NCBI RefSeq assembly: GCF_013122565.1
Contig: NZ_CP053258.1
DNA from: Escherichia coli
GTDB taxonomy: Bacteria; Pseudomonadota; Gammaproteobacteria; Enterobacterales; Enterobacteriaceae
DNA: 64,000 nt
Reading direction: 5' to 3' (one strand)
In this document: piece by piece, positions 42,858 to 43,268 of the stretch
Layout of the letters: every line of letters starts with the position of its first letter
Position numbering within the stretch: the stretch's first letter is position 1
Program-made: the position numbers and the translations under genes
The notes under the pieces: generated by a model
Seen by the model: only the letters and a program-made list of their open reading frames with translations
Told to the model about the DNA's origin: nothing
Databases searched by the model: none

Positions 42858-43268
42858 GCTTGTCCCCGTTTTTTCTTCCTTGGCTAATAATAATGTCTTT
42901 TTCGCTCCGTCATCATAACGAAAATCAAACCGCTCAGGTAAAGAAGTGAAAATATTTTGAGTTAATTCTTAAGCTATGATACAAATCAGGCGTGTTCAAC
43001 TACCGAGGACAATTATCATCCGCGATGACGAGAAGCAACACTGCGGATAATTGTAATATTATGGACAATTTGTTCAGGACGTTATTTTCTACATTTACCC
43101 ATCTTCGTACCTCATCCACTATCTTGCTCGTAGGTGAGCAGCACTGGCGCAACGCGCTTTAGTCCTTTCTTCTGCCAAAGCTTGCGCTAAGCGCGGGGCT
43201 TGACCACTTTACTTTGGTTTCGCTGAATTAAGCGAAAATTAAAATAATTCTCTTGCAGGAGAAGGACA

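Follow-up and report, generated by a model that had tools for sequence, protein, structure and literature searches.

When a gene is inactivated, does the intergenic region that separates it from a divergent neighbor begin to decay? This question is raised by tqsA and the spermidine-exporter operon mdtJI in a 64,000-nucleotide stretch of an Escherichia coli genome (contig NZ_CP053258.1), which we will call the window. According to the list of open reading frames (ORFs), the gene order around the tqsA-mdtJ intergenic spacer is pntA-pntB (plus strand), tqsA (minus strand), the spacer, mdtJ-mdtI (plus strand), and then ydgD and asr (both minus strand). The RefSeq annotation of matching E. coli genomes has the same gene order, with tqsA and mdtJI divergent, and no insertion-sequence interruptions of this K-12-like order were obvious in the ORF layout. 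Both mdtJ (43269-43634) and mdtI (43621-43950) are intact, as judged from the ORF list and from the RefSeq annotation of homologous loci. The spacer extends from 42858 to 43268, as in the original prediction, and its length is 411 bp by ORF boundaries: 42857 is the end of the tqsA start codon (on the minus strand), and the ATG of mdtJ begins at 43269. The original prediction also described the spacer as lacking any ORF and proposed that the promoter of an inactive tqsA might be decaying or repurposed. Based on the comparisons below, we consider it very likely that this is the tqsA-mdtUJI spacer in its canonical enterobacterial form, functionally intact and unchanged after a recent inactivation of tqsA. 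There is nothing unusual about the region, which has been characterized before: its main element, the upstream ORF mdtU, was described in 2019-2021.

We first consider whether tqsA is truly disrupted, as originally predicted. In the window, tqsA is represented by two ORFs on the minus strand: a 5' fragment of 226 amino acids (42177-42857) and a 3' fragment of 91 amino acids (41909-42184), which is in a different frame from the 5' fragment. An exact comparison with the intact gene shows that residues 1-219 are those of intact TqsA, after which the frame shifts and a frameshifted tail follows. At the junction (42200/42201), 86 bp are missing, corresponding to nucleotides 658-743 of the 1035-nucleotide coding sequence. 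The 226-amino-acid ORF matches positions 2-218 of the Pfam profile AI-2E_transport (PF01594; 327 positions), and the 91-amino-acid ORF matches positions 252-326. Because of the deletion, a single continuous ORF of ~344 amino acids that spans the whole profile is absent here, and tqsA is split in two. Similarly, a 1051-bp query over tqsA corresponds to 1137 bp, in two pieces, in every best match listed. The deletion is found in none of the matches listed (5,422 complete E. coli genomes match).

The absence of the deletion from those matches might indicate an artefact of sequencing or assembly, in which case the living strain would carry an undamaged tqsA, and the question would lose its premise. 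Also, we found the deletion in just one other data set, SRR11451224, which could be from the same isolate. However, the Logan assembly of SRR11451224 was built independently, and it contains the identical allele (100% identity over 5858 bp), with the same 226-amino-acid product. The deletion junction is clean, no repeat that could mislead an assembler was seen there, and knockouts of tqsA are common, both in nature and in the laboratory. We therefore view an artefact as very unlikely. Instead, it appears that tqsA was inactivated recently in this strain by the 86-bp deletion. All 219 residues that survive at the N-terminus of TqsA are those of the intact protein, so the knockout is probably recent.

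The loss of tqsA turns out to be unremarkable, since the gene has repeatedly been lost, both naturally and in laboratory strains. In one laboratory-evolution study, ionic-liquid stress repeatedly selected for lesions in tqsA (PMC5691611). Escherichia sp. MOD1-EC7003 (NZ_PTRE01000069.1) is an independent case of natural loss: the coding sequence of tqsA is deleted from the start codon to ~23 nt before the stop codon (41932-42857 in the window), while the spacer, mdtU, and mdtJI are kept. Relative to the window, MOD1-EC7003 has 13 differences in the ~100 bp of the spacer next to tqsA, one in the promoter and leader of mdtUJI, and one in mdtU. These ~100 bp were the most variable part of the spacer in every comparison.

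In 45 complete E. coli genomes (at least 80% coverage) and in two metagenome contigs, an element of ~11 kb lies inside the 5' part of tqsA. In window coordinates, it is inserted at 42721-42729, with a 9-bp overlap at the junctions. The element is located at 2408-13598 of one of the metagenome contigs (L089) and at 1608-13003 of the locus from E. coli EcPF5 (L090; NZ_CP054236.1). It encodes a tyrosine integrase, an HTH regulator, Icd-like proteins, a primase, and SSB, as well as a major capsid protein and a head decoration protein. From its gene content, the element looks like a capsid-forming phage satellite, and tqsA seems to be its integration site. The number of places matched in the search with tqsA exceeded the number of genomes by 251, a hint that a few percent of genomes may have tqsA in two pieces. 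Around 1591-1593, contig L089 also lacks 376 bp that comprise the 3' ends of pntB and tqsA (41623-41998 in the window). EcPF5 has the same satellite insertion and keeps these 376 bp; the gap in L089 may reflect either a misassembly or a deletion specific to that strain.

Given that tqsA is disrupted, has the spacer changed? Of 5,426 complete E. coli genomes, 5,418 contain the spacer at 80% coverage or above, with 95-99.8% identity. It is identical at 410 of 411 positions to the spacers of O157:H7 TR01 and 14EC033, both of which have an intact tqsA. The sole difference is at 42882, which is G in the window and T in most E. coli. The K-12-like strain C600 differs at two of the 411 positions: at 42882 and at 43190, which is an A/T polymorphism in the loop of a hairpin in the mdtUJI leader (hairpin 1, discussed below). 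Across the promoter and leader of mdtUJI (~310 bp), 43190 is the only difference from C600. Comparing these sequences, we see no difference from the K-12 locus that is likely to be functional; the disruption of tqsA is particular to the window.

Could the promoter of the dead tqsA nevertheless be decaying or taking on another role, with the spacer drifting? The gene is genuinely disrupted, and the only base that distinguishes the spacer from those of the closest intact strains lies in the part near tqsA, between the predicted -10 element of tqsA and its start codon. Furthermore, the identical 411-mer was not found in any of the 5,422 complete E. coli genomes compared. But a single difference in 411 bp is involved, and the site is hypervariable: T, G, and C all occur there among Escherichia species, and it belongs to the part of the spacer that varies most. 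The exact 61-mer from 42858 to 42918, which includes the G at 42882, is present in 207 complete genomes. One of these is Nissle 1917, which carries an intact 1035-bp tqsA. The predicted -10 element and Shine-Dalgarno sequence of tqsA are both intact. Also, with no amino-acid changes in the surviving 219 codons, the knockout would be too recent for drift. Finally, relative to 14EC033, the spacer has one difference in 411 bp, as compared to 15 differences in pntB and 15 in ydgD, which makes the spacer, as far as these alignments indicate, one of the segments of the locus that have diverged the least. Decay or repurposing thus has a very small probability. The spacer appears to be a combination of alleles that circulate in strains with intact tqsA: we found no intact strain whose spacer is the same to the last base, but every one of its alleles, taken singly, occurs in such strains. 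We see no sign in its sequence of decay or repurposing.

Among metagenomes, the exact 119-mer from 42876 to 42994 was found in two contigs only, and in both of them tqsA is interrupted by the satellite insertion. We considered whether the G at 42882 marks lineages with a disrupted tqsA, and this was ruled out by Nissle 1917.

The spacer was originally described as a shared divergent control region. This is correct, but the region is lopsided. The published transcription start site of mdtUJI is 278 nt from the ATG of mdtJ, so ~277 of the 411 bp are transcribed as the mdtUJI leader, and only about 100 bp, adjoining tqsA, can belong to the promoter and 5' untranslated region of tqsA. In these ~100 bp, on the minus strand, we predict a Shine-Dalgarno sequence for tqsA (GGGGA; the plus strand has CCCC at 42864-42867) and a -10 element (TATTAT, from 42892 to 42887), so that the predicted elements span 42862-42892. 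In the alignment across genera, the ~80 bp nearest to tqsA are poorly conserved except for the Shine-Dalgarno sequence and, at 42887-42892, a minus-strand hexamer of the form TAnnnT. We infer that the left-hand ~100 bp hold a short 5' untranslated region and a weak promoter for tqsA, with 42887-42892 as the probable -10 element. In a literature search, we found no experimentally mapped transcription start site or promoter for tqsA.

The promoter of mdtUJI (42957-42992, plus strand) is better defined. Reading from the sequence, the -35 element is TTGAGT (42957-42962), and the extended -10 element comprises TG (42977-42978) and TACAAA (42980-42985); both elements are conserved across genera. Transcription starts at the G at 42992. 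According to Leuzzi et al. 2015 (PMC4636849), primer extension in the Shigella/E. coli mdtJI promoter placed the start at a G, with the ATG of mdtJ at +278. This is the same promoter as in the window, with its G at -278, and the same start site was obtained by dRNA-seq (Adams et al. 2021, PMC7815308). It had been suggested that promoter prediction would be informative for this region. A simple scan for sigma-70 promoters and terminators across 42700-43400 called no sites, so neither promoter was identified at its threshold, and we placed the mdtUJI promoter by the published mapping of the start site and by conservation. Across genera, 42937-43070 is almost invariant in the alignment: this includes the GTAAAGAAnTGAAAA block, TTGAGT, TGnTACAAA, and the whole 70-nt leader that precedes mdtU.

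Just upstream of the -35 element, there is a near-invariant block, GGTAAAGAAGTGAAAAT (42937-42953, plus strand), which we consider to be a candidate UP element or factor-binding site. We found no factor assigned to this block in the literature on the locus. Two proteins are reported to bind nearby. Leuzzi et al. 2015 showed that H-NS binds a 588-bp fragment of the mdtJI promoter region and represses mdtJI (PMC4636849). AcrR binds a 286-bp fragment of the mdtJI region in a gel-shift (EMSA) assay (PMC9769551). The primers for this fragment have exact matches in the window, at 42931-42948 and 43198-43216, so the published amplicon corresponds by sequence to 42931-43216.

The description of the spacer as lacking an ORF does not hold. 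The ORF list contains a 56-amino-acid ORF at 42992-43162, which RefSeq annotates as "protein YdgV" (WP_001303517.1). Its last 33 codons are mdtU, formerly ydgV (43061-43162, plus strand; 33 amino acids and a TAG stop codon; MDNLFRTLFSTFTHLRTSSTILLVGEQHWRNAL). Residues 24-56 of the 56-amino-acid ORF match all 33 positions (1-33) of Pfam's YdgV profile (PF23502), with a score of 91.6 bits, as compared to a cut-off of 27 bits (E = 1.9e-26). NCBIfam has no model for MdtU/YdgV. In the window, mdtU has 34 codons, including the stop codon, which ends at 43162, 106 nt before the mdtJ ATG at 43269. In K-12, the upstream ORF likewise has 34 codons and its stop codon is 106 nt before the AUG of mdtJ (Adams et al. 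2021, PMC7815308). The nucleotide sequence of mdtU in the window is identical to that of K-12, and the protein is the one that RefSeq annotates in the E. coli strains that we compared (WP_001303517.1). The upstream ORF was described earlier by Weaver et al. 2019, as cited in PMC7815308, and ydgV was renamed mdtU by Adams et al. 2021 (eLife, PMC7815308).

RefSeq's annotation implies that the product might be the 56-amino-acid form, starting from the GTG at 42992, rather than the 33-amino-acid MdtU. The additional in-frame residues, MTRSNTADNCNIM, are kept in several genera. However, the conservation of this region is explained by the conserved sequence of the leader RNA, and a longer in-frame form that starts with ATG is missing from most Enterobacter loci. 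The GTG coincides with the mapped transcription start site (the G at 42992), so the longer form would need a leaderless GTG start. The Pfam profile spans the last 33 residues alone. In K-12, mdtU is translated, and changing the ATG of the 34-codon ORF to ACG abolished the signal from a lacZ fusion (PMC7815308). We think there is very little chance that the 56-amino-acid form is the real product, and the N-terminus of WP_001303517.1 looks over-extended. We will refer to the 33-amino-acid form as MdtU.

We examined the conservation of MdtU and its leader by scanning one genome per species with MdtJ, which yielded 80 loci from about 15 genera, including Escherichia, Citrobacter, Enterobacter, Lelliottia, Kluyvera, Leclercia, Buttiauxella, Cedecea, Kosakonia, and Salmonella. 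Across the 80 loci, tqsA is divergent from mdtJ in most loci and genera. Nearly all of the loci contain an upstream ORF that starts with MD and ends with GEQHWR[NST]AL and a stop codon; in the window, the C-terminus is GEQHWRNAL, followed by TAG. Among the 73 distinct sequences of mdtU, this motif is invariant or near-invariant, and the stop codon is TAG in all 73, with no TAA or TGA. Conservation over the final 30 nt extends even to synonymous and third codon positions. The gap between the stop codon of mdtU and mdtJ is 91-129 nt in most of the orthologous loci.

In K-12, the translation of mdtU is required for the induction by spermidine of both the mdtJI mRNA and the MdtJ protein: at high pH, spermidine induces the full-length mdtUJI mRNA and MdtJ, but only if mdtU is translated (PMC7815308). 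Experiments with a rhoR66S mutant showed that transcription of the K-12 leader terminates prematurely in a Rho-dependent manner, and the 3' end lies 6 nt inside mdtJ (PMC7815308). Consistent with factor-dependent termination, our scan of 42700-43400 found no intrinsic terminator. The published control elements from K-12 are all present in the window, at the same locus and with the same gene order, distance from the transcription start site, 34-codon upstream ORF, and 106-nt distance from its stop codon to the AUG (PMC7815308).

These features are compatible with the following model. Spermidine would stall the ribosome at the invariant C-terminus of MdtU (GEQHWRNAL-UAG). The stalled ribosome would shield or block Rho, which would otherwise load on a C-rich, G-poor stretch within mdtU (43082-43131, plus strand), a candidate rut site from a composition scan; the 40 nt at 43082-43121 include 13 C but just one G, a composition that on its own is not proof of Rho loading. 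The ribosome would also cover a CU-rich tract, UCCUUUCUUCUGCC (43163-43176), which immediately follows the stop codon of mdtU and is complementary to the Shine-Dalgarno sequence of mdtJ (GGAG, 43258-43261), with which it would otherwise pair. With the Shine-Dalgarno sequence uncovered, the transcription and translation of mdtJI would proceed, much as in the tnaC and speFL systems. Stalling by MdtU was put forward by Adams et al. 2021 as a hypothesis only (PMC7815308). A literature search found no later mechanistic test of spermidine-dependent stalling at the mdtU stop codon.

The tnaC-tnaAB and speFL-speF operons each have a short upstream ORF with a conserved C-terminus, Rho-dependent termination downstream of it, and induction by a metabolite. 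Like tnaC and speFL, mdtU is a short upstream ORF whose conserved C-terminus is at the stop codon and which is followed by Rho-dependent termination, and the small molecule that induces mdtUJI is the pathway's own metabolite. On the other hand, tnaC and speFL have no sequence similarity to mdtU, stalling of MdtU by a ligand is only hypothesized, and the best rut-like tract is inside mdtU instead of directly after its stop codon.

An attenuator in the leader could also account for a result from laboratory evolution with ionic liquids. A 120-bp deletion in the spacer arose recurrently, and the authors suggested that it acts through the loss of H-NS sites (PMC5691611). By our mapping, this deletion corresponds to 43094-43213 in the window, so that hairpin 1 and the CU-rich tract are lost together with the stop codon of mdtU and the 3' two thirds of its sequence. 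Given what is removed, we propose that the loss of the attenuator would explain the phenotype no less well, and perhaps better, than the loss of H-NS sites.

Besides the upstream ORF, the leader contains several conserved structures. Between mdtU and mdtJ, the CU-rich tract pairs with 43255-43267 in the minimum free energy (MFE) fold. Within this long-range helix, each pair of the 7-bp core is formed in ~76-97% of the sequences, with no compensatory changes, and only 64% of the sequences form the outer part. When we tested this anti-Shine-Dalgarno helix as the main switch, its support came from conservation but not from covariation. Two local hairpins downstream of the mdtU stop codon are supported by compensatory changes. 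Hairpin 1 (43179-43200) is 89.4% paired, and four of its nine pairs have changed on both sides. Hairpin 2 (43219-43236), from the RNAalifold consensus, is 89.5% paired, with compensatory changes in four of six pairs; at one of these pairs, 28 sequences have changed on both sides. The RNAalifold consensus also includes a local hairpin, UUCUC/GAGAA (43248-43263), which would sequester the Shine-Dalgarno sequence of mdtJ. It is 99.7% paired and nearly invariant, so that covariation speaks neither for nor against it.

The part of the leader that precedes mdtU, from the transcription start site to its AUG (42992-43060, plus strand), is almost unchanged among 66 distinct sequences, which come from about 15 genera. 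It can form a hairpin with arms at 43009-43023 and 43043-43054 and with an invariant GAYGAGAAGCAA in the loop. This hairpin is in the MFE fold; its stem is 94.7% paired across the sequences, and two of the pairs show compensatory changes. The AUG of mdtU has no Shine-Dalgarno sequence at a normal distance. Directly 5' of the hairpin is GAGG (43005-43008), and folding of the hairpin would bring it to within ~6 nt of the AUG. No Rfam covariance model matched either strand of 38000-48000 at E ≤ 1, and we found no discussion of this 70-nt element in the literature on the locus. It is possible, and we suggest it tentatively as a minority view, that the ~70-nt leader is an undescribed cis-regulatory RNA element. 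Such an element could be a translational switch with a split Shine-Dalgarno sequence, or a module that binds polyamines or a protein.

Two broader lessons follow from this locus. Long spacers in Enterobacteria that seem to be empty should be checked for small translated upstream ORFs before they are described as free of ORFs. And the presence of a pseudogene next to a spacer does not imply that a promoter is decaying if most of the spacer is the leader of the other gene and the knockout is recent. The near-invariance of the 70-nt leader is the sole thread here with some potential for novelty. If this leader is a regulatory element, it would set the level of translation of mdtU, and hence the export of spermidine, and this would be a general property of the locus, not of this strain.
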